A stretch of 40,000 bases of DNA from Haloquadratum walsbyi J07HQW1 (GTDB lineage: Archaea; Halobacteriota; Halobacteria; Halobacteriales; Haloferacaceae): assembly GCA_000415965.1 (NCBI GenBank), contig KE356560.1:698895-738894 (forward strand), written 5' to 3'. Below are positions 1 to 37,624 of the stretch, piece after piece. The translations under genes and the position numbers were made by a program. Below the pieces are notes generated by a model. The model made no database searches and was not told where the DNA came from. It saw only the letters and a program-made list of their open reading frames with translations. Numbering within the stretch: the stretch's first letter is position 1; each line of letters opens with the position of its first letter.

Positions 1-393
1 CTGTGATCGAATTACTTCGAACTCGCTATAACTGGTGTACGCATCATTTTCTTCAAGTTCGCGGAATGCAGCAAGGTAAGCACCAGCCGATTGTGGATTA
101 TCGCTGGATACAGTTACATTTTCATCTGTCTGTGTTATTGGTGTTTGATCAAACGTGTTTTGCGTGACTTCATCTGATTGTTCATCTCCAGACAGCGCTG
201 TTTCTCCTACTGTCTCTACCGGTATCCTCGTTTGGGTCATCGCTGTTCTCGGTTCGGCAGTAGGTGCCGTCTTTACAATATCTGATTGTGTTGTATTGGT
301 GCTCGCTGCCGTTCCAACTCCTGGAACAATCCCGGTAAAGGCAAACGCAATGATAACCAGAATGATCGCATAGTTTCTCCAGCATAGTGTCAT
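1..393 (-). CDS. Partial CDS (N-terminal part; continues past window start): signal-anchored or secreted protein, last visible gene of the tubulin-like cluster
   Basis: Absent from the ORF track because it runs off the window. Manual reverse translation from ATG (revcomp of cat 391-393) gives MTLCWRNYAIILVIIAFAFTGIVPGVGTAASTNTTQSDIVKTAPTAEP...DAYTSYSEFEVIRSQ, 131 codons open to position 1. It has an N-terminal hydrophobic helix followed by a T/Q/D/E-rich region. Same strand, 123 nt downstream of the 1096-aa membrane protein. Confidence 0.5.
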   Translation of the reverse strand, partial: MTLCWRNYAIILVIIAFAFTGIVPGVGTAASTNTTQSDIVKTAPTAEPRTAMTQTRIPVETVGETALSGDEQSDEVTQNTFDQTPITQTDENVTVSSDNPQSAGAYLAAFRELEENDAYTSYSEFEVIRSQ

Positions 394-516
394 GCCCACA
401 CCTCGACGCGTTCATCGAACTCCGATGTCGTCCGCAGTCTCTCCGGTGCACACATACATTGATTCGAATTATAGCGTTGTACGTAATCGAAGTTAATATT
501 CGTTTTTCTGCTCATG

Positions 517-3500
517 CTAGTATACCGTCCGTTCCATTCGTTCTCGTAGGGGGTCGTGTTCAAATAGCTCTCCAACAGCGTTCAGTAATGCCTCTGCAAC
601 AACAACAAACGCTGCTGATTCTACCTGATCAGCCGTATTTTGATCTCGAATCATTGTTGTTACTGATCCAACCATCTCCCGAGCAGGTGCAACCTCGGCG
701 ACCTCACCAACCGCCGATGAAACTGTTTCATCAACCTCTTCAATTTGCTCGTTCACCACACTTCGCTGCTGTCCGATATCCTCACGAGCGAGCGATGTGA
801 TTCGACTGATATCAACAGATCCACGCCATGTAATCGATACCTCAGCCATATTTGAGCATGCTGAGAATAAATCGACATTTCGCTTTGAGGTCATGACTGA
901 TTCGACAGTGTCAGCACTCATCTCGATAGCATCAAGCAACGATTCCGCAACCGCGTCAGGGCGGACATCACCACCAGCCATCAAGAGTTGATACCCACTC
1001 GATGGGAGACGCTCAACTGCACGGAGTGCCTCCATGAGAACACTTGCATAATACAGCGGAATCGCACTGTCACGCCGCTCAATTGATCCTATCTCATCGA
1101 TACGTCGTTCGAGTTGACGCCGACGGTTGCTCAGCCCAGATGGAAGTCGATAATCGAACGAAATTGGTAATTCGATTCGCTCTGTGTCACCATCTGTAAC
1201 TCTAATTTCTCGTTTACTCTCAGTAAACGCCTCATCGTATGCTGAGAGATCTGGTTTGACAGTATATGACCCGATTGGGGCATTCTTGAATACGGCCGAG
1301 CCACTTGCATCTGGGTCAAGGACTGCTTTATCTCCCGTCTCCTCTCGGATAGCTATAATAGGCACAGCCGAGACCGACTCATCACCAATTGTGACTGTCG
1401 CGTGAATTTCCCCGACGAGTTGCCGCATCTGGATAGTGGTCTGTGCTCGTCCGTTCCCAATTGCTATTGTTCGTGTTGTTTTTTCATACCGATTATGATC
1501 AGCTGTTATTTCGATTTCTGATGCCGATAATGGTACTTGTTGTCGCCACTGACCGCGCTGATCTGTCTGTCCACGATATGATTGTTTTTGAGAGTCATCA
1601 ATGACTTCAGCTGTTATGTCAACGCCTGCAATTGGGTTCGGGTCCTGAGAACTTGACTGATCAATCGTCTTCACTGCAACCTGTTGTCCGTCAAATTCGA
1701 GTGTGAGACGACTTTCAGTACTGCCCACAGACGTTTTGACCCGTTTTTGCTGCCCATTGATGATTGCTGTTGCTTGAACACGTCCCTGCCGCATCGAGAG
1801 TGTCTCAGATCCACCAGACACAGAGATTGACTGCGAGTTTGATGCTGTGGAGGATTGGTGCTCGATTGTGACATCGACCTCTCGCTCAATCGGAGTACCT
1901 GTCGCATCACGCAACTGAATCCGTAATGTGCCTGTCTGGTAGGAGGGAGTAGCCATCTGTTCTGCTGGTTCTACTCCAGTTTCAATTGCGAGGTACGTAA
2001 TAACCATACTAGATGTAATAAGCCCATATACAAGCCCATACAATGGATTTCGAATCTCACCCACACCAATGAGTATCGCTGCGAGTGATATTATCAGCAC
2101 AACGAGACAGCCTCCAATGATACTGAGCATTGCAGCACCGATATCATCCTTCGCAATCGATGTTGTCCTGAGTCTACTCCATCCGGCACCAACGACGACA
2201 CTGACCAGCAACGTTGTCAACACCGTCAGGGGTAAAGAACCAACGTTGCGCGCCCACCAACTGAATAGTAAAACAAATACCACCGCGCTCATACCCACAC
2301 CAACATTCGTCGCACGCGGGAGTGACTGCGTTCGACGCACCACGCTCGCCCCACCGAGCACGGCGACCCCGAGAATACCACTCATCATAAGTAATAGCGG
2401 ACTGTCGCCACTGAGAATCGTTGCAGTCAGACCTCCCGAGCTGTCGTTGGGTGATTGACCACCTGAGGTCTGTGATGCTCCTTCGGCATTTGATGCCGAG
2501 GTAATATTCACATTCCAGATTCTTCCGTCACTCCCAACGAGTAGAACGGACCCATTCTCCGGGACTGGATACGCGCTCGCATTGATACCCGATGATACAT
2601 CAGACACTGAATATTGAGTATATGAATCGTTTTGCGCTATCCAAAGTGTTGCTCGTCCAGACGCTACAGATCCGCTATCTGCTGTAATCTGATCTGTGCT
2701 CGTATTCCAGGTTACCGTCTGTCTTTGTGACTGAATATTAATTACGTCGTTCGGGGCTCCTCGTCTGTCATATATGATATTTCTGTCTGATCCATGTTTC
2801 TGCTCAATTGTAACATTGAGTGTGTTTGCGAATCGAACTTGCACAGGGACCGTGAGCGGTTGCGTGTCGGTAACTTCTTGTGTCTGTGTGTATACCCCGT
2901 CTGGATTCCGTGTTTGGACAGTCAATGTATACTCTTTACCAGGTGTAATGAGTGGATGCAATATGCTCTGCTGTTGAGCGCTCTTACTACCGGTGATTTC
3001 CAGACGAGGATTCTGTTCTGTGGTAAGCGTGTATTGTTGCGTTGAACCATCCGGCAGAACACGGATGTTAACATCGCTTGTGAGTGCAACACCGGTGTCA
3101 AGAAACGCTTCAGATGAGATTACAATTGCACGTTCATTTGAACGATACTCGCCGATAATGGTTTGACTAAGACCGTTTTGAGAAATCTGAATCGGGACCT
3201 CTGTTTCTGGAACTCCAATCACTGTCGATGAGGGAAGTTTGATACCATCAGACGTGATCTGTGGGGTATCATCCCCCTTTTCAACGTAACGGAGATCTGC
3301 GTTTGTCGATCCAGTCTTGTTCTGATTTACCACAGTCAATGTAATCTCAGCAGATTTGAGATTGAGATTCCGAGCATCGCCGATATCTCGTACGTTGAAT
3401 GTAATTGGTTGATTTTCAGTGAATGAAGTTGACTTGTTATTAACGACAGTCTGCCCAGCGACCGTGACACTGACTGGCTCTGTCCCATTGATCTCAAATC

Positions 3501-3807
3501 CTGAGGGCGTGATAGTGACCTCTCCGCTGTTATTATTTACACTCACATCAATCGAGGCAGCCGAGGCAGTTCCGACCCCATTAAAACCAACTCCGCCAAC
3601 AGCAAACACACACACAGCAACAATAACTAAAATGCAGACCCGGCGAGCAATCATCCATACTTGAATATCAGTATCATCCTCACGCTGTCTCGGGGGACCC
3701 GTCTGCATCTGCTGACCTGATTGTGATTGTGACTGTGGGCATGCTTGAGACGTTTCAGACGATTCGATTGATGCGTGTGGTTGTGTGTGTGAATGCGATG
3801 TATTCAT
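517..3807 (-). CDS. Giant polytopic membrane protein (about 1096 aa): cytoplasmic H/Q/S-rich tail, TM1, ~450-aa beta-rich exodomain, five more TM helices, ~500-aa predicted cytoplasmic region with a beta-sandwich repeat and an acidic helical C-terminus
   Basis: ORF track 517..3936. I prefer the internal ATG at 3805-3807 (MNTSHSH...), 4 nt after the stop of the upstream tubulin-like gene, over the 125-nt overlapping extension. Hydrophobic segments: WMIARRVCILVIVAVCVFAVGGVGF, SPLLLMMSGILGVAVLGGASVV, VGMSAVVFVLLFSWWA, LPLTVLTTLLVSVVVGAGW, IGAAMLSIIGGCLVVLIISLAAILIGVG, LYGLVYGLITSSMVITYLAI. Many N-x-S/T sequons lie between TM1 and TM2 (NNS, NGT, NKS, NKT, NVT, NTS, NDS, NAS, NGS, NIT). The motif AVFKNAPIGSYTVKP resembles carboxypeptidase-regulatory-like (prealbumin-fold) domains. 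Confidence 0.75.
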   Translation of the reverse strand: MNTSHSHTQPHASIESSETSQACPQSQSQSGQQMQTGPPRQREDDTDIQVWMIARRVCILVIVAVCVFAVGGVGFNGVGTASAASIDVSVNNNSGEVTITPSGFEINGTEPVSVTVAGQTVVNNKSTSFTENQPITFNVRDIGDARNLNLKSAEITLTVVNQNKTGSTNADLRYVEKGDDTPQITSDGIKLPSSTVIGVPETEVPIQISQNGLSQTIIGEYRSNERAIVISSEAFLDTGVALTSDVNIRVLPDGSTQQYTLTTEQNPRLEITGSKSAQQQSILHPLITPGKEYTLTVQTRNPDGVYTQTQEVTDTQPLTVPVQVRFANTLNVTIEQKHGSDRNIIYDRRGAPNDVINIQSQRQTVTWNTSTDQITADSGSVASGRATLWIAQNDSYTQYSVSDVSSGINASAYPVPENGSVLLVGSDGRIWNVNITSASNAEGASQTSGGQSPNDSSGGLTATILSGDSPLLLMMSGILGVAVLGGASVVRRTQSLPRATNVGVGMSAVVFVLLFSWWARNVGSLPLTVLTTLLVSVVVGAGWSRLRTTSIAKDDIGAAMLSIIGGCLVVLIISLAAILIGVGEIRNPLYGLVYGLITSSMVITYLAIETGVEPAEQMATPSYQTGTLRIQLRDATGTPIEREVDVTIEHQSSTASNSQSISVSGGSETLSMRQGRVQATAIINGQQKRVKTSVGSTESRLTLEFDGQQVAVKTIDQSSSQDPNPIAGVDITAEVIDDSQKQSYRGQTDQRGQWRQQVPLSASEIEITADHNRYEKTTRTIAIGNGRAQTTIQMRQLVGEIHATVTIGDESVSAVPIIAIREETGDKAVLDPDASGSAVFKNAPIGSYTVKPDLSAYDEAFTESKREIRVTDGDTERIELPISFDYRLPSGLSNRRRQLERRIDEIGSIERRDSAIPLYYASVLMEALRAVERLPSSGYQLLMAGGDVRPDAVAESLLDAIEMSADTVESVMTSKRNVDLFSACSNMAEVSITWRGSVDISRITSLAREDIGQQRSVVNEQIEEVDETVSSAVGEVAEVAPAREMVGSVTTMIRDQNTADQVESAAFVVVAEALLNAVGELFEHDPLRERMERTVY

Positions 3808-3811
3808 AAAC

Positions 3812-5044
3812 TCACCCAGAATTATCTGAAAGATAATCCTCAAGATTCTGTTTGATCTGTCGGAATCGCCGCGGCGGAAACGTCTCTCCTTCGAGACTAT
3901 CGACCCCACTTGAGAGACCGCTGTCTGTCGCCTCATCCATCATTCGTTCGAATTTTGACCATGAGACATCCAATAGCGGATCAAGGTCGAATCCACCGAA
4001 TAATAACAGTACATCGATGCTATCTCGACGAGATTGATGTGGCGTGAGCGTCGGCATCTGATGAACAACATTATCCATTCCATTGTTTGCAAGCCACTGT
4101 TGGAGGCGTCGCTCAAGACCAGCCTCTGAGTACTCACCATCATCGATTGCGTGTTGTGGGACCCGAACAATCGCGTACACGACTTTTGCGGTAGCCGGGT
4201 CCATCGGCACGAAGAGGTTATCTGCAGCTTTGTCAAAAAGCAATTCTAATTCAAATATCGATGGTTGCTCCATTGCAGTCCCGGCGGTAAAGTGGTACTC
4301 ATCGAGACGCCGTGGCCACGCAATGAGATCTCGAACGTCGACCACGCTGTATGTCTCTCGACCAGCACTAATCATCATATCAACTGCTTCAATCGCATTC
4401 CTGTTAACTGTCTCATGACGACTTTCATGATCCTCCCCGAGCTCGTCATCATTTGAGACATGTGAATTTGAGATTAATAATACCATCTCGGCGTTTTGAC
4501 TTCCATCATACCACCGAAGTAATCGCGAAAGTCCAGAAACAGCATTGAAATGACGCTGCCCTCCCTCAAAATTATATGGCCATGCGGCGAGGGCAACATG
4601 CGTGACATCGCGCATCGCGTTTGTCGGTGGATTGTTCTTCAACGTATCGATAACATATGGCACCGAACCATTCCCTGTTCCACCACCAAGAGTGGTCATA
4701 TAGAGAAATGCATCCGCTTCATCGACTCCACCAGTGGTAATTGCCTCTGTGATTCGCGTCTCATCAACCGCAGCACACTGCTCACCACCAGGGAAGTAAT
4801 TTCCAACACCATCAAGCGGACCGAACTCAAGTGTGTGATCGGCTCTGATGTCTTGAATATCAATTGTATTCTGTTCAATACGATCAATCGTGTTTGCAAT
4901 GTCTGCGCGATTCGTGTTCATGACTAAGACCCGGTCATCGATTCCGGGATTCTCAGTGCGACTGAACAGTGTCGATGCCATCCGGCCACCACCCTCGCCC
5001 GATGCGAGAACGGCCCAGCGCGTGTATGTGTCTGATTGCGACAT
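3812..5044 (-). CDS. Divergent tubulin/FtsZ/CetZ-superfamily GTPase (paralog 3, 410 aa)
   Basis: T4 tubulin signature MTTLGGGTGNGSVPYVIDTL. N-terminal glycine loop WAVLASGEGGGRMASTLF at the T1 position. By eye the following are collinear with CetZ/tubulin blocks: MNTNRADI (compare CetZ VNSAKADL), ALAAWPYNFEGG (compare ILPGSDEGG) and VLLISNSHV at the T7 position. The protein is acidic. A 483-nt AT-rich spacer lies upstream. Confidence 0.75.
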   Translation of the reverse strand: MSQSDTYTRWAVLASGEGGGRMASTLFSRTENPGIDDRVLVMNTNRADIANTIDRIEQNTIDIQDIRADHTLEFGPLDGVGNYFPGGEQCAAVDETRITEAITTGGVDEADAFLYMTTLGGGTGNGSVPYVIDTLKNNPPTNAMRDVTHVALAAWPYNFEGGQRHFNAVSGLSRLLRWYDGSQNAEMVLLISNSHVSNDDELGEDHESRHETVNRNAIEAVDMMISAGRETYSVVDVRDLIAWPRRLDEYHFTAGTAMEQPSIFELELLFDKAADNLFVPMDPATAKVVYAIVRVPQHAIDDGEYSEAGLERRLQQWLANNGMDNVVHQMPTLTPHQSRRDSIDVLLLFGGFDLDPLLDVSWSKFERMMDEATDSGLSSGVDSLEGETFPPRRFRQIKQNLEDYLSDNSG

Positions 5045-5527
5045 ATATGTCGGTATACGTCCAGTGTGTAGTTGCGTTTGTATGTGTGCTCAGTATCAAC
5101 TGTGATTGTGTATTGGTCCTGATCTTGATCTTAGTATTAATTTGATTACGTGTCTGATTCTGTCTGTGTTTTTACTGCAAATGGATATCATAAAATGTGG
5201 TTCAATATCTCACGTGGCATTCGATTATGTGAATATATCAATACCTGGTATGGCTTTTTGAAGTAATCTGATGGGACCGTCGTCTGGATTGACACCGTGT
5301 CGACTGATTCCCTCATAACTGCCATTTATGTGTCCGATGATGAATTGATCTTGAATGGGATTCGCTATCATGTCTATTGATAACTGGTATCATATATGGT
5401 TAGTTCAAGTCAGTATTCACTCATTGGTACATATAGTTACATGTGAAGGTGCATATGTAAATGTAGTTGTAATAGTTGGAATCATAGACGTGTCTTGATA
5501 CAATTTTCAACGATATTCATCACATAC

Positions 5528-7624
5528 TCATGATTCGTTTTTTTGTAGTTCCCCGTCACTGATTATACCATTCTCAATATCTGTGTTGACAACTGACTGT
5601 ATCTCATTATTTGGGACTGGGGCTGAGAGAAATCGCTCTCTTAATTCATCAAGCGAAATCGTCTCACTCTCGTCAAGATTATATCTAAGCACGTTTGTTA
5701 ACTCCTGTTGTAGACGGTCACTATCATACACGATGATTGTGCCATCAGAGTTTTCGGTTGCAGTGTTGTCAGTGCGCTCAGCCCACAACACGAGCAAACA
5801 CGGAACGTATGATTCATCAATCTGATATGACATCTCCGAGCTCAGGTATGTCGCTTCATCAAACCGCGTAGAAAATCGCGATGCAAGATCATCAAGATAC
5901 GCTGAGGCTTCCTCAGCTATCCCATCACAAACCCGATCTCGGAGGGTTATTGATGGAATTGATAGCGATACGTCAGTATCACCACTCACGGAAATTTCCG
6001 TCTCAGCTGACCCAAAGCCATCAACAGCAGCCACTGCTGTGACTGTATATTCGCCGAATGGGACGTCGTTGAATGTCGCTGTTCCAACGAGTGGTGTCTC
6101 AACGGTCGTTTCGTCGTCATAGTCCGCACCGTTCAAGACAATGCGAATTTGACGGTCAGGACCACCATGTTCGAATCGGGCAGCCACCGTCACGGTGTAT
6201 GTTTCAGTCCCGCCGACTCGTTTGAGACTTGGCACATCCATATTTAATGTTACTTGATCAGGATGTGACCGATAATACAAGCCTAAAAACTGAGTTTCAT
6301 GATTCCGGACAGGCAGTGCGTCGCCTGTGATCTGTCCATCACTCTGGAGCGCCGATTCAATCACCGGCTCGACCTGGTCATATCCACTGATGACAGCGAC
6401 TTTCGGCTTGACCTCATCAATCGCAGCCGTCAGTGCATCGACCGCAGTAGCCCATCGCTGTTCAAACATTCGAAGATTATCACTCTCCTGTACTTGCTTA
6501 AGATAATCCGTCTCAATCGCTCCAGGTTGTGTGTAGAACCCGTTTGGGATATCCGCAGTGGCAAGCTCTTCATCCATTGAATTGAGCTTTGTCATCAATG
6601 CGTCAATTATCTCAGTGCACTGTGCTCGTGTTTTCTTTCGATGCATCGCAAGTGTTGAAAGATCGACAGCATCATCCAGTTCAGCGACTGCTTGTTTCCG
6701 TTGAGTGACATCCGGTGTTGAGTCAGGGAGATACTGCTCAATATCGTATTCATCAACTGTCTGTAAAAGCGACTGGAGTTGCTCTCGATTCGTTCTGAAC
6801 GTGTTTTCACCTTCGGTTTTAATCGCATCACGTGCACGAAGGAGTGCAGTCACCGCATTAGTCATCTGGTGATTGCTGGCTGCTTCCCGTGCTGTCTCAA
6901 CCTCTTTTTCGATCGTTGTTATTTCGACATCATCAGTCGTTCGTGCAATAGACTGGATTGTCTCTGCAGCTGTATCGATTGTCTCTATTGCTTGTCCTCG
7001 GGCAGCTTCGAGTGATTCGCCCGCTGCAGTGGTCTCTGCACCTGCGTTGGTTGTTGTGACATTAATCGCACGCACAGCCTCCCCACCATCCTCGACGAGT
7101 GTATCTAGTCGATCAAGTGAATCAGCGATTGTCTCGAGACGGTCTTCAACAGTCTTGGCGAACGCCGCTGGTAGTTCATCCGCGGTATCATCAACTCGTC
7201 CTGACAATGAGTTAATTGTCTCAAGATCTGAAACATCTCCAAGTGAAAATGCACCAGTCTCAGTGTCGACATTGATTCCCGCTGTTTGAAGATCACGCTG
7301 CAGTGAGTCAATTCCAAGTCCGAGCCCATTATCAATGACAGTTGGATATGTCTGCTTCAACTGCTGGCGCGTCTGCCAGATATCATTGAACGTCTCACCA
7401 ACTTCTCGCGCACGCCGTCGAGTATATTTTGTTTGGTCTGTTCCTTTTGAATCGACCCGTTGTTGAATCCAGACGCCACCGCTGATGAGCAACAATGGTA
7501 CCATCCCAACTGCTGCATACACTGCCCATTGTGACCCAACAGCAACGAAAACGCCTGCACTCACCGCCCCAGCGAACACAACGAGTCCAATAAGTCCAGC
7601 CGCTGTCCGAGTTGCTGATTTCAT
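5528..7624 (-). CDS. Membrane-anchored acidic alpha-helical protein with C-terminal beta-sandwich domain (about 698 aa)
   Basis: ORF track 5528..7720. The preferred start is ATG 7622-7624 (MKSATRTAAGLIG...), which forms an ATGA overlap with the upstream stop (7621-7623). Two N-terminal TM helices (AAGLIGLVVFAGAVSAGVFVAVG, WAVYAAVGMVPLLLISGGVWI) are followed by a basic stretch KYTRRRAREV (positive-inside). A ~430-aa T/A/E/D-rich helical region follows, then TYTVTVAARF...ATFNDVPFGEYTVTAVAAVDGFG (CarboxypepD_reg-like motif) and a C-terminal domain. Confidence 0.7.
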   Translation of the reverse strand: MKSATRTAAGLIGLVVFAGAVSAGVFVAVGSQWAVYAAVGMVPLLLISGGVWIQQRVDSKGTDQTKYTRRRAREVGETFNDIWQTRQQLKQTYPTVIDNGLGLGIDSLQRDLQTAGINVDTETGAFSLGDVSDLETINSLSGRVDDTADELPAAFAKTVEDRLETIADSLDRLDTLVEDGGEAVRAINVTTTNAGAETTAAGESLEAARGQAIETIDTAAETIQSIARTTDDVEITTIEKEVETAREAASNHQMTNAVTALLRARDAIKTEGENTFRTNREQLQSLLQTVDEYDIEQYLPDSTPDVTQRKQAVAELDDAVDLSTLAMHRKKTRAQCTEIIDALMTKLNSMDEELATADIPNGFYTQPGAIETDYLKQVQESDNLRMFEQRWATAVDALTAAIDEVKPKVAVISGYDQVEPVIESALQSDGQITGDALPVRNHETQFLGLYYRSHPDQVTLNMDVPSLKRVGGTETYTVTVAARFEHGGPDRQIRIVLNGADYDDETTVETPLVGTATFNDVPFGEYTVTAVAAVDGFGSAETEISVSGDTDVSLSIPSITLRDRVCDGIAEEASAYLDDLASRFSTRFDEATYLSSEMSYQIDESYVPCLLVLWAERTDNTATENSDGTIIVYDSDRLQQELTNVLRYNLDESETISLDELRERFLSAPVPNNEIQSVVNTDIENGIISDGELQKNES

Positions 7625-8754: not shown

Positions 8755-9023
8755 AGTTGATTATCCCAGTACAGAAACACACCGATACTTCCAAGAATGC
8801 TTCCGATGCCCGCTCCAAAGAATATACCAGCCCCAATGTGCGATAATGACCGTTGGCTCGTCTTCACCGCTGTAATCACTGACTCTGTTCGCGCTTGCAA
8901 GGTTGATACACTCGGTGGTGTTGCACCAGCAACGGGATCTGGTGTAAGAGAAATCATCACCACTATACAAGCAATCATACCGATGCAGGTGATTATTCCA
9001 GCAACAATTGGATTACCTCTCAT
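8751..9023 (-). CDS. Small membrane protein (90 aa, 2-3 TM)
   Basis: MRGNPIVAGIITCIGMIACIVVMISL ... GAGIFFGAGIGSILGSIGVFLYW. The start ATG (9021-9023) shares one base with the TGA (9023-9025) of the upstream tubulin-like gene, and the stop overlaps the next start (ATGA). This coupling is the main argument over the competing 69-aa ORF in another frame. Confidence 0.55.
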   Translation of the reverse strand: MRGNPIVAGIITCIGMIACIVVMISLTPDPVAGATPPSVSTLQARTESVITAVKTSQRSLSHIGAGIFFGAGIGSILGSIGVFLYWDNQL

Positions 9024-10315
9024 CAGGCGATCACCGCATCTGATTCTGTCTCATACTCTTCTGCGAGCGTCTCTAATTCAGCAAGCCGCTCGAGGTCCTC
9101 TCGTCGATAGGTAAACAACGTTGTGAATGAAACCAGACTTCGATTTGTTAATGTCGCGCCGAGATTCACTTCATCACATCGAGCGTGGAGAAACGACCGC
9201 AACGTTGATGTCTGAATCTGGTAATCCGTATCGGCAATGTATGTCGAAGGTGCACGCAACAGTCCAACCGCCTTTCGCGCCTCTCGTGTATCAACGTCTG
9301 CAACAGTCTGTTTTAGTTCCGCGACCTGTGAGAGTGCCGTTGCATCGATTTTATTTTGTCCAATAAAGGGCAATAGATATCCAGCAAGCGACTTCGTCAT
9401 CTCCACTGACCGACCCATTGACGCGTACCCAGTTTCGGTATCCTCCCCCAGACCGAACGAAAGGCTCGTCACAATATCCTGAATATCAATAATTGGCGGA
9501 TCAACATCATATTCGCTCCGATCAATCCGCTCAAGAACTGTCCCCGAAATAAGACTCACAATCGCAGAGGCAACATATTCATTGAGATCCGTGAACTGTC
9601 CTTCTGCGGCTTCGTGGTATGAAAGCCGCTCATTATCAACGAGGATAATCCCATCTGCAACCTGCTCGATCTGATTGAGTCCATAGCGAGCATTCCAGGC
9701 TTGCCGACTCGGTGAAGCACCCTCATCGGATTCATCATCGACTGTCCCAACCGGACCCTGAGTGTTTGGAAGCACACAGACCGCGATTGTTTTGCATGTT
9801 CCGTTGGTATACTCATCAATTGCATCAATGAGATGTGCGGTAATTCCACATCCTGTCCCACCACCAAGTCCACAGAACACAAACGCGAATGGCACGTTCG
9901 TCTCTTCAGTTTCAACCACTGACTCGGTCGCTGTTGTTTCGGCACCTGCTTCAGCATTATCACTAGCGGTGCTCGCGGTCCCCTCATCGATTTCAACCCG
10001 CTCTGTCAATTCATCGTACAGTGTATTATCAAGTGCTGCCCGGTTGTCCGCAAGTACCTCATCAGCCCGAACAGGATTACGCCCAAATCCGCCAGTTACC
10101 TGCTCTTCGAATCCGTCTGTCGTCCCAGGAACCAATCCTGTGCCCTCAGCAATTCCGTACCAGCTATTGCGATCGATATTTGTGAGTTTCCGCAGGTCTC
10201 TGACTGTCGAATTGAAAACAAGATGTGTCGCAATCTCGTCCATATTCTTATGAGCGAATATCTCGTCTACAATAGAACTGCCAGCCTGTCCTGCACCCAC
10301 AAAAAGGTATGGCAT
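9023..10315 (-). CDS. Divergent tubulin/CetZ-like GTPase (paralog 2, 430 aa)
   Basis: T1 loop MPYLFVGAGQAGSSIVDEIF (compare CetZ G-x-GQAGG). T4 signature FVFCGLGGGTGCGITAHLIDAI. T7-like ILVDNERL (compare tubulin/CetZ DNEA/DNDA). The blocks NSTVRDL, VCVLPNTQG and WNARYGLNQIEQVADG are collinear with CetZ. A ~40-aa acidic insertion (EGTASTASDNAEAGAETTATESVVETEE) sits before T4. Confidence 0.8.
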   Translation of the reverse strand: MPYLFVGAGQAGSSIVDEIFAHKNMDEIATHLVFNSTVRDLRKLTNIDRNSWYGIAEGTGLVPGTTDGFEEQVTGGFGRNPVRADEVLADNRAALDNTLYDELTERVEIDEGTASTASDNAEAGAETTATESVVETEETNVPFAFVFCGLGGGTGCGITAHLIDAIDEYTNGTCKTIAVCVLPNTQGPVGTVDDESDEGASPSRQAWNARYGLNQIEQVADGIILVDNERLSYHEAAEGQFTDLNEYVASAIVSLISGTVLERIDRSEYDVDPPIIDIQDIVTSLSFGLGEDTETGYASMGRSVEMTKSLAGYLLPFIGQNKIDATALSQVAELKQTVADVDTREARKAVGLLRAPSTYIADTDYQIQTSTLRSFLHARCDEVNLGATLTNRSLVSFTTLFTYRREDLERLAELETLAEEYETESDAVIA

Positions 10316-10340
10316 TATTGTATCTATGTTTAATCCACTC

Positions 10341-10348
10341 TGATAAAC
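10341..10348 (-). promoter_or_regulatory. Candidate TATA box (GTTTATCA on minus strand) for an internal promoter in front of tubulin-like paralog 2
   Basis: Located -26 to -33 relative to the ATG at 10315, inside the 105-nt spacer. This spacing fits haloarchaeal leaderless transcripts. Sequence-only call. Confidence 0.3.
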
Positions 10349-10420
10349 ATGTCTGCTCGCTCAGGATTATATCTGTGAGCTCAGTGTATAATTGACTGTC
10401 CCACGCTATAACTCTCTCAG

Positions 10421-12118
10421 TCATCCGCGTAACTGCTCAAGTAACACGCTATATGCTTGTCGCTCATATAATTCTCTCACCCAATCAAGTGTCTCATCAG
10501 CGGCTTGTAAATACCCAATAGCTCGGTCGGTATTCCCTGCTGCTCGTGCATCGCTGGCTGCCTCTTGGAGTGAACTCACGAGTTCAAGAAAGTGAATCGG
10601 AATACTATGATCGTGTGCTGGATACTCAGAAGGATACTCTGTGCGAAGGGTTGACCGTCGCGACTCAATCTCCTCAGCGAGTGTCTGAACACTGAGTCCA
10701 CTGGATTCTCCGGTCGGTGACTGTAGTTCTGGGCATAATGTTCGATCATAAAATCGTAACTCCTGCCGCGCTGCATACACACTTACACGATCTGCGGGTC
10801 CTGCTTGTGAGACAGTTGATTCAAGCTCAGCAGCACGATCAGCTAAGACTTTCCCAACTGCTGCATCGGTTTTTTGAAACTCAGTCACGAGTGACCCCGC
10901 TAATTCAGCGACAGAATCAGTCTCAACCCCCTCGAGCCGATCTGCGGTAACAGCGGCTTCATCAATTGCTGTCACAGCTGATTGTAACGCCTCAGCGTAC
11001 CTCGAAGTAGCAACATCATCTGCTCGGAGCACATCAATCAAACTCTGACTTCGACTACTTTGTGGAGAAACTGCCGCCCGCTCAATGACAGTCTCAATAT
11101 CGGTCACTGCTGTGGTAAATGCAATTTCTTCATTTATCAGTGCAGTAGTGATTTCATCAAGCGCCAAATCGGGTTTCATATTTGGATCAGCACTGATTGA
11201 CTTACCAGCCTGTTCGCGGACAGTATCGCATATTTCCTCGACGCTTGCACCGATTGATTCGTGTGTACTGCGACACTCATCTCTGTCGGTGATGACATCT
11301 GCAAGTCGCTCACCAATAGTGGTGACTGCTGATCCAGTCTCTCCACCGATTTCTGCTCCTTTTTGCTGCAGTGTTTGCGATAGTTGCTCCGCTTCGACAT
11401 GGGGTTGCACCGTTGATAATGCACGGTGTGTCTCAGCGTCGCGCTCGATGCGTTCGATTGCTGTGGTGAGTGTCTCAGTAAGTCGCCGTTCAGCGGTATT
11501 ATTTGGTGCCTCAAGATACCGAAGAAGTCGATTTGCGGTGTCTGTCTGTGGGTCCGTCCGTGCTGACGCTGTTTCAACTGCATTCGTCAATAACGCTGAG
11601 ATTGTCTCATTCGTTGTTTTTGTCGTTTCAGTGGTCCCCGCGTGGTTGTCTTGACCTCTTGATGTGCTCTCATCACTCATCACAACGCTTAGATTATTGT
11701 AATCTCCTGCTGCATTCTGTTCTCCAGACGATGCGTCATCAACCGAAGCGACTGGTGGAATGAGCTTATTTTGATCTGCAGCGCGAAGGATTGCAGTCGC
11801 CTGTGTCGATGGATCTGCATTTCGGTCAACGATTTCTCGTTCAATGAGTTTGGCTTCAGTGACAATCTGATTGATAGCATCGATGAAGACAGCGGGGTCG
11901 TGATTTGTGTGATTAATTCCCTCTGTTGTTTCTGCTGTTGAATCAACCTGCTTACGAGTCCCAGCGACAAATCCCACGACTCCACCAACGAATAATGAAA
12001 GTACAACTGAACCGGCAAATAATGGTATATTCTCAATACCGAGATTGCCGAGTACATTGACAACAACTACCACACTCTCACCGACAATCATTCCTCCACT
12101 AGCGAGTATGTTTATCAT
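10421..12118 (-). CDS. Membrane-anchored acidic alpha-helical protein (565 aa)
   Basis: N-terminal TM hairpin (ILASGGMIVGESVVVVVNVLGNLG, IPLFAGSVVLSLFVGGVVGFVAG) followed by TRKQ. The remaining ~500 aa are T/A/E/D-rich, look helical, and show no enzymatic motif. The start lies 6 nt after the stop of the zinc-finger tubulin-like gene. Confidence 0.7.
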   Translation of the reverse strand: MINILASGGMIVGESVVVVVNVLGNLGIENIPLFAGSVVLSLFVGGVVGFVAGTRKQVDSTAETTEGINHTNHDPAVFIDAINQIVTEAKLIEREIVDRNADPSTQATAILRAADQNKLIPPVASVDDASSGEQNAAGDYNNLSVVMSDESTSRGQDNHAGTTETTKTTNETISALLTNAVETASARTDPQTDTANRLLRYLEAPNNTAERRLTETLTTAIERIERDAETHRALSTVQPHVEAEQLSQTLQQKGAEIGGETGSAVTTIGERLADVITDRDECRSTHESIGASVEEICDTVREQAGKSISADPNMKPDLALDEITTALINEEIAFTTAVTDIETVIERAAVSPQSSRSQSLIDVLRADDVATSRYAEALQSAVTAIDEAAVTADRLEGVETDSVAELAGSLVTEFQKTDAAVGKVLADRAAELESTVSQAGPADRVSVYAARQELRFYDRTLCPELQSPTGESSGLSVQTLAEEIESRRSTLRTEYPSEYPAHDHSIPIHFLELVSSLQEAASDARAAGNTDRAIGYLQAADETLDWVRELYERQAYSVLLEQLRG

Positions 12119-12124
12119 TATACA

Positions 12125-13972
12125 TCACCCCATATTTTCTCGACCAAGACAATCAAATAGTGGCTCAATTGTTTCCCATGCCTCGCGTAACTCCTGTGCC
12201 TCCTTATTTTCGCTTTGCTCGACAAGTTCTCGTGCGTGCTTGTACATCCGCTCCAGTGTCGGGAGATTCGGATTCCATATGAGCCCCCATAGATAGACAT
12301 TGTCTACATGAGGTACAACGAGTTGATTGACATAGATGTCAATCGAACTCGGTCCATCATATTGCTCGCGTGCGAGAAAATCTTGACCGCTTAGAATCGA
12401 TGTTAATTCACCATCTTGTAGCAGTGGCTCAAGCTCTTCCATCTTTTCTGCCGGACCATATGCCATGAACGTGCCACCCCATGCACTCTTTGGGTCAAAA
12501 TCAACAAGTTGTCCCTGTAGAAGCGTCGACCGTGCGAGTGTATCTAAACGCGCTCTATCAAATCGACTGGCACTTGTCGTTCCGATAACCGGCGCCATCA
12601 CTACAGCAGGAGTGTACGCTCGGTCACTCGCGATGCCATATTTTCGTTGGACTGGGCGAAAACTATCCGGGACATCAAATACCTCACCACTAATTCGTTC
12701 TGTCCCCGTGGTGTCCGCTGACTGTGGCGTCGATGACATCGTAAATGCCTCAAGAAACGTTACCAGTAGGCGGTTGACATCGGTATACATTGGCGGGTTA
12801 TAATGTTCAAGCGCCGCCTGATCGATATCGACGGCAAAATCGGTTCGCTGTGCATCGAGCTTGCTATTATCGAACGGAATAATACCGTCAACGTGCTTTG
12901 AGAGGTATGCCATTCCAACAACCCCACGGACCATCTCTGATGCACCAAACTCAGTCTCTGATGGGAGGACCACGGAACTCAAAATTGGCTTTGAAAGTGT
13001 CGTTGCATCCGCAACACCCGTTCCTTCACTCACGAGATTGCGGATGTTCTTCGCGAGGACTGGCGTTGATCCACATCCAGTACCCTTTGTGACGCTGTGG
13101 ATCAACATCACAGCCTGTGACGCCTCTAGGTCACGCTGATTGACATCAAGTCGGTCTCTAATTGCATTTTTCTCTCCCTCGAAGTCTTTCTGCATGAGGG
13201 TTCGACCAACCTTCCAATTACGCCCTGCTCCGCTGTAATTATGATGACGGTAACCGATCATCCCATTCGTAATGAGTGATTCTTTTGAAAATTCTCGATC
13301 TTGCTGTGCATAAAACGTATCCCCCAACTCCGCAATATTGGTGTTTAATCCCGCGTAATCTGCGAGTCCACCATCCCACACCTGTGCAAGTGGACTGTTC
13401 TGTTCACGAAGTGTCTCTCGACGGAGTAAAATCGCATCAAGAATATGATTCCCAGCCCCCCCAATCCCAATCATCTGCCATTTGTTTCCTGTTGCACCAC
13501 TCAGCGGCGTCGATCCAGGAATATTCACATTGGTATCAATACCCCCGTCGCCGGTGTTTAGATGTGTATTATCACTCTGCGAGTGCCTCTGTCCGGAGAG
13601 TTGGTCTTCGTCGACGTCGGGTGTCGACTCCGGTGATGTTTGAGCACTCGATGTCGATTGTGCTGGATTTTGACCTGCTTGGGTGTTCAGATTACTATGA
13701 CTGCCCGTATTGCCATTCGACTGCGATTCACCTTTATTTCGATTTTTCTCATCTGACGTCGTAATATGCAGTGACGACCCACTGTTATCGTCATCTGAGT
13801 TATCATTGTGATACTGTGGTCGCAGTTCGCCATCACTGTCAAAGATTGTGCTATATCGGTCTGCGTACACCTCCTGGACGGATGCCGGCGTTCCTGCATG
13901 GTTGGCTGCGATGTGTTCTTCGATACTTTGCTCATCAATTTCGCGCAGGCAGATTTTGCAATTGTTTGTCAT
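12125..13972 (-). CDS. Zinc-finger-fused tubulin/FtsZ-superfamily protein (paralog 1, 615 aa) with a degenerate T4 signature
   Basis: The N-terminus CKICLREIDEQSIEEHIAANH has the pattern C-x2-C-x11-H-x4-H (C2H2-like). A ~130-aa S/N/Q/D/G-rich low-complexity linker follows. T1 loop WQMIGIGGAGNHILDAILL. T4 LIHSVTKGTGCGSTPVLAKNI (compare CetZ GLGGGTGSGGAPVLAK). VVLPSETEFG. T7-like IIPFDNSKLD. The start lies 6 nt after the upstream stop. Confidence 0.7.
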   Translation of the reverse strand: MTNNCKICLREIDEQSIEEHIAANHAGTPASVQEVYADRYSTIFDSDGELRPQYHNDNSDDDNSGSSLHITTSDEKNRNKGESQSNGNTGSHSNLNTQAGQNPAQSTSSAQTSPESTPDVDEDQLSGQRHSQSDNTHLNTGDGGIDTNVNIPGSTPLSGATGNKWQMIGIGGAGNHILDAILLRRETLREQNSPLAQVWDGGLADYAGLNTNIAELGDTFYAQQDREFSKESLITNGMIGYRHHNYSGAGRNWKVGRTLMQKDFEGEKNAIRDRLDVNQRDLEASQAVMLIHSVTKGTGCGSTPVLAKNIRNLVSEGTGVADATTLSKPILSSVVLPSETEFGASEMVRGVVGMAYLSKHVDGIIPFDNSKLDAQRTDFAVDIDQAALEHYNPPMYTDVNRLLVTFLEAFTMSSTPQSADTTGTERISGEVFDVPDSFRPVQRKYGIASDRAYTPAVVMAPVIGTTSASRFDRARLDTLARSTLLQGQLVDFDPKSAWGGTFMAYGPAEKMEELEPLLQDGELTSILSGQDFLAREQYDGPSSIDIYVNQLVVPHVDNVYLWGLIWNPNLPTLERMYKHARELVEQSENKEAQELREAWETIEPLFDCLGRENMG

Positions 13973-13978
13973 TGTCTG

Positions 13979-15907
13979 TTATGCGTATGCTGATTGTAAT
14001 TGCTTCATCACTCGTCGTGGACTCACTCCATCTGCAACTTCAATAGAAAGGAATCCTGGTGGTGGATTCGATGGAATCGTTACTTGTACTACATCACCTT
14101 GTCGCTCAGCGAATGATTTAATCTCAGTAAGAACGGCTGGTTTGATAAATTTCGCTGGAAGTCGCTCAGTTTGGAGTTCGACAGTGTTTTTACCACGCTG
14201 AGATGCAGCGCTCGCTTGCAGTTCACCAAGTACATACAGAACATCATCCTGTGGTACCTCCGTATCGCGAGGGGTCCCTCCAGTTAATGCTGCATGCTCG
14301 CCTGTACCGTCTGCTGTCCTGCTGCGTTCTGCCCCAGTAACACCACTGGTGGCATTACCTGCACCCGATTCCATCTCTGAATCGCTCCTTTCTGTTAGAT
14401 TCAATACATCATCTACGACCTGATACTCGATTTGATAACTCCGCTCGAATGGCACCCGTAGCTTCTCGATAAGATCAGTATCGATTGATGATGGTACAGG
14501 AATTGAACCGGACCCATACTCAATCGTCGCTGTGACGCTTTGTCCAAAGAATTCAGCAATCTGAACAATCTCTTTTGCTTCTGTCTCTGCTGTGTCAGCC
14601 GACTGTGTTGCTGCGTCGAATCGACACTCATGCAACGCCTCCAGTGCCTCCTTACGGTGGTCATCAACGATTGGCTTTGTTGGAAGCGATTCATTAGCTG
14701 ATAACTCTGGTGTCCGCCCTTCGAGTAGATACGCCTCAAGTCGCTCTTGAGCCGGTCCCTCTAATTTATTAAGATTTGTTGCAGTGGTTTCAATTGCGTT
14801 TTCTGCCGTATCTAAGGATTCAGCAATCGGTTCTTCATGAGTTTGAAGTGTTTCTTCAACTGCTTCAAGATGCGTATCAATTGCATCAACTGCCCCAGCG
14901 ACAGCAGCAAGTCCATCTGGATTCGTTTCGATTGTCTCAATAAGTCGGGTAGCTATTTCATGCTGTGCTCCGCCAATTTGAATAGCCGGTCCATCGATTG
15001 TCGGTGGTGAGACCGAATTATGGGTCCGCAAATTTCGGATCTTATACTCACGATTGAATCGCGACACATAGTGTACGTCACTATATTGTTCTTTAATCTC
15101 GTCTCTCAGTCGTCGCTTCAACGTAGATATTAACCGAACAGCAGTCTCTTCTGCAACTTCATTGAGTTTCGCCGCATCAGCCTGTAGTTGCGCAGCTGTA
15201 TCATGGCGCTCACGGCTTGATATCGATCCATCAACAACCGCATCCGCTTTATCCTGAACTGTTTGACAACGCTCTCGAAACTCGCTGCACTCTGATTCGA
15301 ATGCTGCGACTGCCTCTGGTGCGACTGCTCTCAGCGACGACCGTACCTGTTCGTCCACAACTCGCTCGACTTGATCATCGAATGTGGTGAGCGCCTGCTG
15401 TGTACTTTCACGAGCGGTAGATAACGCTTCTGCAGCCTCTGAATCAAGTGTCACATTCCAATCAAAGACAAGCGATGCCGCCCAACTCATTGCTGCGGTC
15501 CCGATTGGAACAAATAAGAATCCAGCAGTTTGAACCGCTGGAATTCCTGCAGAAGCAATTGGAAGATACACAAGCTCGAATAACACAAGAAACAGTGTCA
15601 CAAATCCTGTGGCACCAAGGGTCATAACGCGGTGTTGAAGAGCAAATAATCCAATCCCCTGGGCAATCCACGCAAGCGCGATGAGAACAAATAATATAAA
15701 CACGATAGTTGAACTTGACCGGAAAATATTACCTGCAGTCCGAAAGACAGATACCGACCAGAGAAATTGCGTGAGTGATCCAATCAGCGGAATCGTGGTA
15801 GCTGTCGTCTCAAACAGCGCGACCGTTGCCTGCACGAAGGATGCAAGAATTGGCAACCCAGCGACAGCCCAACACCCTGCCGCAACTCGCCGCCTATTCT
15901 GCAACAT
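13979..15907 (-). CDS. Polytopic (4-6 TM) membrane protein with a long acidic alpha-helical C-terminal region (642 aa); first gene of the cluster
   Basis: The N-terminal ~150 aa are hydrophobic (VAAGCWAVAGLPILASFVQATVALF, IPLIGSLTQFLWSVSVF, STIVFILFVLIALAWIAQGIGLFAL, VMTLGATGFVTLFLVLFELVYLPIA, IPAVQTAGFLFVPIGTAAMSWAASLVF). About 490 aa of E/A/T/D-rich helical sequence follow. No catalytic motifs recognised. Confidence 0.7.
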   Translation of the reverse strand: MLQNRRRVAAGCWAVAGLPILASFVQATVALFETTATTIPLIGSLTQFLWSVSVFRTAGNIFRSSSTIVFILFVLIALAWIAQGIGLFALQHRVMTLGATGFVTLFLVLFELVYLPIASAGIPAVQTAGFLFVPIGTAAMSWAASLVFDWNVTLDSEAAEALSTARESTQQALTTFDDQVERVVDEQVRSSLRAVAPEAVAAFESECSEFRERCQTVQDKADAVVDGSISSRERHDTAAQLQADAAKLNEVAEETAVRLISTLKRRLRDEIKEQYSDVHYVSRFNREYKIRNLRTHNSVSPPTIDGPAIQIGGAQHEIATRLIETIETNPDGLAAVAGAVDAIDTHLEAVEETLQTHEEPIAESLDTAENAIETTATNLNKLEGPAQERLEAYLLEGRTPELSANESLPTKPIVDDHRKEALEALHECRFDAATQSADTAETEAKEIVQIAEFFGQSVTATIEYGSGSIPVPSSIDTDLIEKLRVPFERSYQIEYQVVDDVLNLTERSDSEMESGAGNATSGVTGAERSRTADGTGEHAALTGGTPRDTEVPQDDVLYVLGELQASAASQRGKNTVELQTERLPAKFIKPAVLTEIKSFAERQGDVVQVTIPSNPPPGFLSIEVADGVSPRRVMKQLQSAYA

Positions 15908-32400: not shown

Positions 32401-32531
32401 TCACGAGGTTATCAATCTCTTCAACATCAGAGCGTAACAGAATATCCAATCTTTTTCAACGGCACGGTGAACCCACCTCGGGGTTAACCCTCAGAGCAGT
32501 CGCCCTGGTCGTCTATACAGCACAGGCATAA

Positions 32532-32560
32532 ACTCAGACTCAGACTCAGACTCAGACTCG
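32532..32560. repeat. Hexanucleotide microsatellite (ACTCAG, about 4.8 units) just 3' of pstB
   Basis: actcag actcag actcag actcag actcg read directly, 20 nt beyond the pstB stop codon. Confidence 0.85.
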
Positions 32561-32579
32561 GAGTTGAACTCGGCATCCA

Positions 32580-36227: not shown

Positions 36228-36285
36228 AATGTGTTACGTGTGTTTATTATCAAAAAACGGGCGGAATGTTGTCGGCGGACGGTAC

Positions 36286-37449: not shown

Positions 37450-37624
37450 CGACTAATAATCCATCAACTCCGAGTAAAACGATTTATAATACCCCTACCG
37501 AGGACTCAATAGACGTGAGGCTTAAAGTGAGTGCTATATATTCCATTATAGCTCTCTATGCGAGTCATGTTTTCAGGGAACAACACTTATCAAGAGTTAC
37601 CCATCGAAAACGTAGATTGCAAGT

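Follow-up and report, generated by a model that had tools for sequence, protein, structure and literature searches.

Among the described tubulin-superfamily systems of archaea, FtsZ serves in division and CetZ in controlling the shape of the cell (Duggin et al. 2015), and two further published accounts come close to the genes discussed here. Makarova et al. [quoted passage not shown] (2023; Front Microbiol 13:1100249) described a Halobacterota group of paralogues, 'Halo.Tub', whose copies they noted to be quasi-tandem; Brown and Duggin (2023) pooled such proteins as 'non-canonical TSF'. Here, we analyze a cluster of genes for three divergent tubulin-like GTPases and their membrane-associated neighbors in a 40,000-nucleotide stretch of H. 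walsbyi J07HQW1 (contig KE356560.1, positions 698,895 to 738,894; hereafter the window, numbered from its first letter), where the cluster fills positions 1-15907. We read it, with a probability of about one half, as the tubulin-rich arm of a haloarchaeal super-locus of ~16 genes that would encode a membrane-tethered, trans-membrane-coupled tubulin filament machine for membrane remodeling.

Part of this cluster has already been cataloged. Table S2 of Makarova et al. (2024) lists HQRW_RS02560, RS02565, RS02570 (572922..576212) and RS02575 ('FtsZ3', 576217..577449) of strain C23, which equal the genes that we call g906, g398, g1096 and T410 (the numbers give product lengths in residues, and T marks the tubulin-like GTPases); gene lengths and spacing in the window match those of HQRW_RS02565-02575. 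The published neighborhood ends at T410, five genes from Vps4, as it does for Halobacterium salinarum and Halobiforma. Seven genes, namely g698, g377, g90, T430, g565, T615 and g642, two of the three tubulins and every TM-anchored helical partner among them, are not covered by the published accounts. The 'Halo.Tub' study is a phylogenetic note without partner families, topology or an ESCRT link, and its match to T615, T430 and T410 is taken from its description, the sequences not having been mapped one to one. An earlier, sequence-only reading of the window had proposed a candidate undescribed cytoskeleton-envelope system parsed into three modules; the architecture that it proposed holds, while 'undescribed' fails in view of these two publications and the module parsing fails on the comparative evidence given below.

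Results

Open reading frame (ORF) calling on the minus strand of window 1-15907 returned nine complete genes and one that is cut by the window's left edge, so that of the ten genes counted in the sequence-only reading the tenth is represented by only the first 131 codons of a 398-residue protein; coordinates, lengths, strand and junction sizes were otherwise as that reading had given them. The Tubulin/FtsZ GTPase domain is the sole enzymatic domain that Pfam recognizes in the cluster proteins, and it is found in T615 (615 residues, 12125..13972), T430 (430 residues, 9023..10315) and T410 (410 residues, 3812..5044), which score 49.4, 43.2 and 41.8 bits, respectively, against PF00091, for which the gathering score is 33 bits. 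Pairwise BLASTP among the three gave no significant match, and their family profiles align mutually with hhalign probabilities of 98-99% over ~290-300 columns, C-terminal domain included (98.3-98.4% for the T615 profile against those of T430 and T410). The earlier assignment of all three to the tubulin/FtsZ superfamily, as well as its emphasis on their mutual divergence and on their being the only recognizable enzymatic domains, was therefore borne out.

The sequence motifs of each family are strongly conserved. T410 carries T1 SGEGGGR, T4 LGGGTGNG and T7 D236xxD239, all invariant in 43 sequences, and T430 carries T1 GAGQAG, T4 GLGGGTGCG and T7 D277xxD280, invariant in 27 orthologues, those of non-halophiles included. 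T615 combines a canonical T1 (IGIGGAGN) with a non-canonical, invariant T4 (TKGTGCG) and a T7-like FDVPD (D433/D436) in 20 orthologues, so that the three T4 strings picked out by the sequence-only reading (GGGTGNG, GGGTGCG and TKGTGCG) are present and conserved within their families. By these alignments, the nucleotide-binding loops and the T7 acidic pair are kept in all three proteins, which favors catalytic competence, the acidic pairs being placed by alignment order and by alignment to CetZ, not from a solved structure. T615 additionally has an N-terminal zinc finger, CxxC...H....H, invariant in the 20 orthologues, followed by a disordered linker and the highly divergent GTPase. Short conserved motifs end all three tubulin families, with T615 having the C-terminal peptide EPLFxCLGRENM, and by analogy these motifs may recall the partner-docking peptide of FtsZ.

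CetZ structures are the nearest solved relatives of T430 and T410 (CetZ entries PDB 4b46, 4b45 and 3zid; Duggin et al. 2015), yet identity in structural alignments is ~17-20%. The T430 family profile matched CetZ1 (4b46) at E = 5.6e-21 in a full-length alignment, with BtubA and BtubB also among its matches, and the T410 family profile matched the same structure at E = 3e-13, along with CetZ2, FtsZ, TubZ and gamma-tubulin; the T615 profile matched FtsZ/BtubA at E ~1e-4 only. An AlphaFold2 model of T410 based on 43 homologues (mean predicted local distance difference test, pLDDT, 88.2; predicted template modeling score 0.90) shows a C-terminal sheet and a long H7 helix (206-229) in addition to the GTPase domain, and T410 thus models as a complete two-domain tubulin fold. 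CetZ ranked first when this model was searched with Foldseek (E = 1.6e-18, TMt up to 0.85), and the query-normalized TM-score was highest for beta- and gamma-tubulin (0.72-0.75), with FtsZ at ~0.61. Makarova et al. (2024) file T410 in arCOG02202, the CetZ arCOG, and they report the H. walsbyi tubulin to lie outside the main CetZ branch, citing Duggin 2015.

Two more familiar assignments were rejected. The three proteins score 26, 28.7 and 32.4 bits against the FtsZ equivalog TIGR00065, far below its cut-off of 295.2, and are not canonical FtsZ. Scores of 19.4 and 14.3 bits against PF13809 (cut-off 27), together with the wrong architecture and neighbors, speak against membership in FtsZl1.

Around the three GTPases lie genes for membrane and surface proteins, whose transmembrane (TM) segments and sequons we assigned by simple hydropathy and N-glycosylation sequon counts; both agree with the description in the sequence-only reading. 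In total, seven of the eleven cluster proteins (g906 included) are membrane or exo-proteins. The central partner is g698 (698 residues from its ATG start, 5528..7624), whose gene sits between those of T430 and T410 in every core locus described below. Its product begins with an N-terminal TM hairpin, continues with a predicted cytoplasmic domain of ~370 residues made of long helices and with a small winged-helix-like unit in which Y415, G430 and Y450 are nearly invariant, and ends with a prealbumin/CnaB-like beta-sandwich and an alpha/beta domain. The latter two domains are absent from the ~455-residue forms of non-halophiles and occur in Halobacteria and on two non-halobacterial contigs, L035 (labeled Ca. 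Methanoperedens) and L070 (labeled uncultured Halobacteria). The family is rare, with 110 matches at E <= 1e-3 in 1.84 billion cluster representatives, and the AlphaFold2 model of g698 (pLDDT 76.8) comes from a shallow alignment, repeat homologue searches having given the same eight relatives plus one marginal one (E = 3.8e-4). Matches of g698 to the PDB were to beta-sandwiches only, of the prealbumin/CnaB type by Foldseek and of the NOMO type by profile. An EzrA- or spectrin-like fold was considered for g698 and found no support, the PDB Foldseek matches being to the beta-sandwich only and the match to PRC1 (E = 0.066) not being significant.

The second large partner, g1096 (1096 residues from its ATG start, 517..3807; arCOG04500), has an N-terminal TM segment, a sequon-rich exodomain of ~400 residues, four to five further TM segments and a predicted cytoplasmic domain of ~500 residues. 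Residues 747-881 of this protein resemble residues 425-557 of g698 (hhalign 92.3%), defining a common winged-helix and beta-sandwich module. The orthologue of g1096 in Hydrothermarchaeum comprises a signal peptide, an extracellular propeller of the PQQ/WD40 type, a single TM segment and, inside the cell, a domain homologous to the cytoplasmic one of g1096. Taken together, the two architectures indicate that the g1096 family is the sole component to place large domains on either side of the membrane, and we propose it as a trans-membrane coupler.

Two exoproteins follow g1096. The first 131 codons of g398 (arCOG12846) occupy the window's left edge (1..393, read from 393 to 1), and the full gene, seen on the metagenome contigs L003 and L004, encodes a membrane-anchored helical exoprotein whose last 290 residues have a paralogous counterpart at the C-terminus of g906 (hhalign 97.5%). 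Beyond the edge lie the rest of g398, the gene for g906, an Ig-repeat protein of ~900 residues, and then a convergent ESCRT-like operon. The Halo_adaptin paper calls g906 adaptin-like, whereas its signal-like N-terminus, C-terminal TM segment and hypervariability between strains make it look extracellular here.

The remaining partners lie upstream of g698. g377 (377 residues, 7621..8754) has an N-terminal TM segment, an exodomain with nine NxS/T sequons (residues 142-283) and C-terminal TM segments, and g90 (90 residues, 8751..9023) is a small membrane protein with two TM segments; each family is present in 41 loci, all of them in Halobacteria. g565 (565 residues, 10421..12118), placed by ORF calling, TM prediction and synteny, starts with a membrane hairpin at its N-terminus, which a low-complexity acidic stretch and a domain of helices follow, and the orthologues that we examined in Natrinema and Natronomonas carry a bPH_2 domain and/or a zinc ribbon recognized by Pfam. 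g642 (642 residues, 13979..15907) has three to four N-terminal TM segments and a helical domain of ~490 residues, with no Pfam or NCBIfam family match. Weak profile similarity links the helices of g642 and g698 (hhalign 87.9% over 72 columns). Since this is the best score among g642, g565 and g698, which otherwise lack convincing mutual homology, the idea that a 'partner plus tubulin' module had simply been triplicated found no support.

Gene order across genomes shows which of these genes belong together. T410 homologues are widespread in Halobacteria; that of Natronomonas moolapensis is annotated 'FtsZ family protein, noncanonical', and N. moolapensis and Halosimplex rubrum share the gene order of the window, followed by two extra co-directional genes (~340 and 770-960 residues) and a convergent gene for a PQQ beta-propeller. 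A scan of one genome per species, with loci sorted by gene order after ORF calling and iterated hidden Markov models, one per window protein, left 80 loci. The full collinear order g642-T615-g565-T430-g90-g377-g698-T410-g1096-g398-g906 is found in 33 of them, from ~17 halobacterial genera (four are H. walsbyi-like), and seven loci have the last eight genes only; in Halobellus, where the upstream sequence is long enough, the first three genes are seen to be missing. Eleven non-halobacterial loci, from Hydrothermarchaeota, Ca. Pyrohabitans, a contig labeled Ca. Methanoperedens and other metagenome-assembled genomes (MAGs), have a compact divergent core in which g906 and g398 lie on one strand and T430-g698-T410 on the other; a g1096 orthologue is present in eight of the eleven, beside g906 in six. 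T430 is present in the full, eight-gene and core locus types. In 27 further loci, mostly of ANME-2/Methanosarcinales, the T410-like gene stands alone.

These comparisons confirm that linkage to the membrane proteins is conserved, both in the 33 collinear loci and in the reduced forms, and they redraw the boundaries within the cluster. The sequence-only reading had divided the genes into three modules (g642 to g565, T430 to g698, and T410 onward) at gaps of 105 and 483 nucleotides, the junctions within modules being +6, +6, -1, -4, -4 and +4 nucleotides and several genes overlapping by start and stop codons. The split is not upheld because it follows gaps peculiar to H. walsbyi: the 483-nucleotide gap between g698 and T410 (5045..5527, minus strand), which is AT-rich and confined to the H. 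walsbyi lineage, shrinks to 0-6 nucleotides at the same junction in Natronomonas, Halosimplex and Halobacterium. As judged by gene order, the second and third modules are a single ancestral unit, T430-g698-T410 with g398, g906 and g1096, and g642-T615-g565 is an add-on found in Halobacteria only; by the same comparison, Halobacteria gained g90, g377, the g642-T615-g565 trio and the neighboring ESCRT-like operon.

Several loci depart from these types. The stand-alone T410-like gene (~36% identity) lies beside cdhC in 23 ANME-2/Methanosarcinales loci (L043-L065; for example L055, 9986-11281, where an S-layer protein gene is also nearby), with none of the partner families detected next to it in these loci. 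We set aside a functional link between T410 and cdhC and took the adjacency as synteny among related genomes. Halobellus marinus (L072) and H. ordinarius (L074) each have, in addition to the eight-gene form, a second T410-like paralogue beside which no partner genes were detected. One core locus (T430-g698-T410 with divergent g398/g906; L066) is on a 450-kb contig, JAZJZE010000005.1, of a MAG labeled 'bacterium'; either the MAG is mislabeled or misbinned, or the core has been transferred between domains.

In Halobacteria, the tubulin arm faces a convergent operon for a PQQ/Ig protein, a Vps4-like ATPase, an ESCRT-III-like protein and two winged-helix proteins. This is the Halo_adaptin locus itself: the published gene set (a Vps4-like AAA+ ATPase with a VAT/Cdc48-type N-domain, an ESCRT-III-like protein, the arCOG11740/11741 winged-helix proteins and the PQQ/Ig 'adaptin-like' protein) adjoins a tubulin gene and follows T410, g1096, g398 and g906, in H. 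salinarum, Natrinema and Halobaculum as well. The ESCRT-like arm lies outside the window; the C23 table lists it beside genes equal in length and spacing to those of the window, and the metagenome contig L003, which is 99.6% identical to the window at the DNA level, continues from the cluster into the PQQ gene. Of the halobacterial loci, 38 have the convergent PQQ gene, and the AAA+ gene appears in all 13 whose fetched stretch reaches far enough. The complete layout of 11 + 5 genes is found on H. salinarum R1 plasmid pHS2 (L087) and on a Natrinema and a Halobaculum plasmid (L088, L089). In H. salinarum, the Vps4-like ATPase matches the Pfam families AAA and CDC48_2, the 226-residue ESCRT-III-like protein has no Pfam match, and the PQQ protein, having no signal peptide and no convincing TM segment (one weak hydropathy peak), is predicted to be cytoplasmic.

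Variation between co-occurring H. walsbyi-like strains, with hypervariability compared over window 1-3807 and L003/L004 11238-18561, follows the predicted sides of the membrane. The tubulins and helical anchors are 99-100% identical and sequon-poor, whereas the sequon-rich exodomains are hypervariable: g398 keeps 78% identity overall and ~50% in its first 100 residues, g906 keeps 90%, and parts of the g1096 exodomain fall to 80% while its cytoplasmic half remains at 96-100%. This pattern lends independent support to the inside/outside topology, which the sequence-only reading had also put forward. The identical 410-residue T410 protein is found on contigs from Lake Tyrrell and other saltern metagenomes.

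The distribution of the locus is patchy across many genera, and copies occur on plasmids or beside insertion sequence (IS) elements, including Natrinema and Halobaculum megaplasmids, with most copies being chromosomal. In H. walsbyi, mutL (HQRW_RS02515) and mutS (window 16053-18851), which share a strand, are separated by the super-locus of ~29 kb and by three small genes. The mutS and mutL genes are normally adjacent, and the super-locus looks like an insertion into the pair. The pHS2 copy (NC_010369.1, 159083-194963; OE_RS12000-OE_RS12075) has the complete 16 genes, with ISH8 and ISH6 transposase genes past the ESCRT arm. On the Halobaculum halobium plasmid NZ_CP126159.1 (L089), the annotation splits the T615 orthologue, and likewise the T430 orthologue, into two short ORFs in succession, which could be frameshifts or pseudogenes or could reflect sequencing errors. 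The patchiness, the plasmid and IS context, the position between mutL and mutS and the hypervariable surface parts together suggest an accessory, horizontally moving, environment-facing system. The only expression record found may bear on it: H. salinarum 'cetZ5' (VNG6260G) changes in expression over the growth curve. We take this gene to be plasmid-borne and probably one of the three paralogues of this locus.

Some smaller features of the window complete the inventory. No structured RNA was matched by Rfam anywhere in it, the 483-nucleotide gap included. A 48-residue ORF is called inside this gap in some assemblies, and a 41-residue ORF lies between g1096 and g398 (390-515, minus strand), with a similar version in other H. 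walsbyi-like strains; g1096 and g398 abut in other genera, leaving no space for it. Besides a gene for TnpB, the rest of the window holds housekeeping genes unrelated to the cluster, for MutS, an SDR, PurT, NAD kinase/IMPase, a pst-type ABC system and an MFS transporter. The TnpB, of the IS605 family (OrfB_IS605 and Cas12f1-like TNB), lies just past mutS at 19250-20431, and G+C content rises from ~48% to 54-57% over 32001-38000 (ABC-transporter and phosphate-binding-protein genes), unlike the rest of the window.

Discussion

This anatomy is best read as that of a probable filament system linked to a trans-membrane complex, and our leaning toward membrane remodeling as its role comes from the adjacent ESCRT-like arm. 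We envisage that T430 and T410, the ancestral pair flanking g698, polymerize, perhaps jointly, on the cytoplasmic face of the membrane, where g698 would tether them through their conserved C-terminal peptides and g565 and g642 would act likewise as tethers. The filament would be coupled to the surface complex of g1096, g398 and g906 through the winged-helix and beta-sandwich module that g698 and g1096 have in common, and GTP-driven filament dynamics could then position or deform the membrane where it is marked from outside. In Halobacteria, a third tubulin, T615, with its own anchors g642 and g565 and two small membrane proteins, may have been added, and the convergent ESCRT-like operon might supply scission or disassembly. 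The overall role would be membrane remodeling, for example vesicle budding, protein sorting or local envelope turnover.

Known systems offer partial parallels to this scheme. FtsZ tethers such as SepF, ZipA, FtsA and EzrA would be alike in that an anchored partner holds the filament through a short C-terminal peptide, and g698, g565 and g642 resemble EzrA in outline, each joining TM segments at the N-terminus to a cytoplasmic domain that is long and helical, although neither profile nor Foldseek searches matched EzrA, SepF or ZipA. Alpha/beta-tubulin and BtubA/BtubB with BtubC are likewise pairs of divergent paralogues, and T430-g698-T410 recalls the co-encoding of such a pair with a helical partner; g698, however, is membrane-anchored and is not a TPR protein like BtubC. 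T430 and T410 both keep the T7 acidic pair, which beta-tubulin is not known to have. The GTPases of the FtsZl1 system of Makarova and Koonin (2010) are also divergent and FtsZ-like, and membrane remodeling by a multi-component apparatus is predicted for them, but FtsZl1 proteins have ~1000 residues, a coiled coil and PF13809, lack T6-H7 and have vWA, GTPase and OmpA neighbors, whereas the tubulins described here have 410-615 residues and no vWA, GTPase or OmpA genes beside them. In contrast with CetZ, the cluster proteins are encoded in a conserved operon with membrane proteins, and one of them, T615, has a zinc finger and a TKGTGCG T4. The cluster differs from Halo_adaptin as published in that its tubulin/membrane core also occurs in loci near which no ESCRT arm was seen.

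A number of observations weigh against the membrane-remodeling filament machine. Polymerization, the heteropolymer and all protein-protein contacts are things that we infer, and we found no follow-up or experimental work on the locus in the literature. The T4 motif of T615 is non-canonical and its profile is barely detectable against solved tubulins, so that T615 may not be a normal GTPase, and the helical domain of g698, the proposed tether, had no significant structural match either by Foldseek against the PDB or by profile against PDB sequences. T410-like genes are also solitary, in ANME-2 and as the second Halobellus copies, and the data therefore do not require an obligate T430/T410 heteropolymer. 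With regard to the ESCRT-like arm, the assignment of its ESCRT-III-like protein is weak, with an HHpred probability to PspA of only 33 (Makarova et al. 2024), and a profile comparison of the winged-helix and ESCRT-III-like proteins with the tubulin-arm partners gave no similarity. The fetched flanks of the 11 non-halobacterial core loci yielded neither a Vps4-like nor a PQQ gene; the presence of a core without a nearby ESCRT arm indicates that ESCRT coupling is not the ancestral mechanism. The only core locus with identified flanks, in Hydrothermarchaeum (L083), is surrounded by housekeeping genes. Going by this distribution, the tubulin machine probably predates the ESCRT-like arm and is independent of it. 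A bolder version of our reading, which we consider unlikely, would make the six-gene core an ancient, self-sufficient euryarchaeal machine, in which T430 and T410, as an obligate pair, build a heteropolymer at the membrane that a transmembrane adaptor couples mechanically to a variable extracellular apparatus, and to which ESCRT-like scission docked later, in Halobacteria. Heteromeric tubulin would then have arisen here separately from alpha/beta-tubulin and BtubA/B, and Halobacteria would offer a prokaryotic instance in which tubulin and ESCRT machinery act together at a single site on the membrane.

The sequence-only reading had also named cell shape and partitioning as possible roles, for which we find no specific support, the adjacent ESCRT-like arm pointing instead to membrane remodeling. 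A CetZ-like morphogenetic cytoskeleton, responsible for shape (such as the flat squares of Haloquadratum) or for positioning surface organelles, with the membrane proteins as its anchors and the ESCRT-like operon as an unrelated neighbor, seems to us improbable. It would account for CetZ1, CetZ2 and Methanosaeta CetZ being the closest solved relatives of T430 and T410 and for the filing of T410 in the CetZ arCOG, and CetZ1 is reported to govern shape and motility in Haloferax. However, the locus is spread patchily, in association with plasmids and IS elements, over genera of varied shapes, and no Haloferax volcanii locus was present among the 80 kept loci or the named T410 matches listed. To our knowledge, this shape model organism has no copy. 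The placement of the H. walsbyi protein outside the CetZ clade and the conservation of the convergent PQQ/Vps4-like arm in 38 loci, which argues against a chance neighbor, further detract from this explanation.

Improbable to the same degree is a horizontally traveling surface island for recognition, contact-dependent exchange or antagonism, vesicle-mediated transfer of DNA or plasmids, or virus exclusion, in which the tubulins would assemble or turn over a variable surface structure. The position between mutL and mutS, the ISH8/ISH6 transposase genes on the ESCRT-arm side in pHS2, the megaplasmid copies and the 50-90% identity of g398, g906 and the g1096 exodomain where the tubulins of the same strains are identical are what such an island would lead one to expect. 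Yet Pfam and NCBIfam scans detected no toxin, nuclease, integrase or relaxase domains in the cluster, no PADLOC or PHROGs family was matched except through the generic AAA+ similarity of the Vps4-like ATPase, and the Hydrothermarchaeum core has housekeeping genes for neighbors. This idea is compatible with the filament machine as a statement of its purpose rather than of its mechanism.

We consider it quite improbable that the three proteins are non-polymerizing tubulin-like GTPase switches or pseudo-enzymes that regulate the assembly or secretion of membrane and surface proteins. The deviant T4 and extreme divergence of T615, the lack of BLAST-level similarity among the paralogues and the proposal that the divergent FtsZl1 possibly does not form filaments (Makarova and Koonin 2010) could be read in this way, but each of the three families invariantly keeps the T7 acidic pair, a feature of consequence only for hydrolysis between subunits of a polymer, and the T410 model keeps the H7 helix and the C-terminal domain. 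A TubZ-like system segregating DNA or plasmids on megaplasmids is scarcely probable, for although some copies are plasmid-borne, the T615 zinc finger, the zinc ribbons of g565 orthologues and the g698 winged-helix-like unit could bind DNA, and TubZ and RepX are among the profile matches, most copies are chromosomal, CetZ outscores TubZ and RepX by far, segregation would not need the membrane and exo-proteins that make up seven of the eleven, and the cluster holds no gene for a TubR-like small DNA-binding adaptor (centromere repeats were not searched for).

The cluster is a distinctive variant within the tubulin superfamily that comparative genomics had already partly cataloged. The gene set defined here extends the published Halo_adaptin neighborhood, and the ESCRT-free core in non-halophiles changes the question of which part is ancestral. 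H. salinarum R1, the host of the pHS2 copy, is genetically tractable. If the membrane-remodeling filament machine is real, it would add to FtsZ in division and CetZ in shape control a third functional class among the tubulin-family systems of archaea. It would further provide an example, from outside the eukaryotes, of tubulin filaments with a genetic tie to ESCRT-like components, and would bear on how cytoskeleton and membrane-remodeling machinery came to cooperate.

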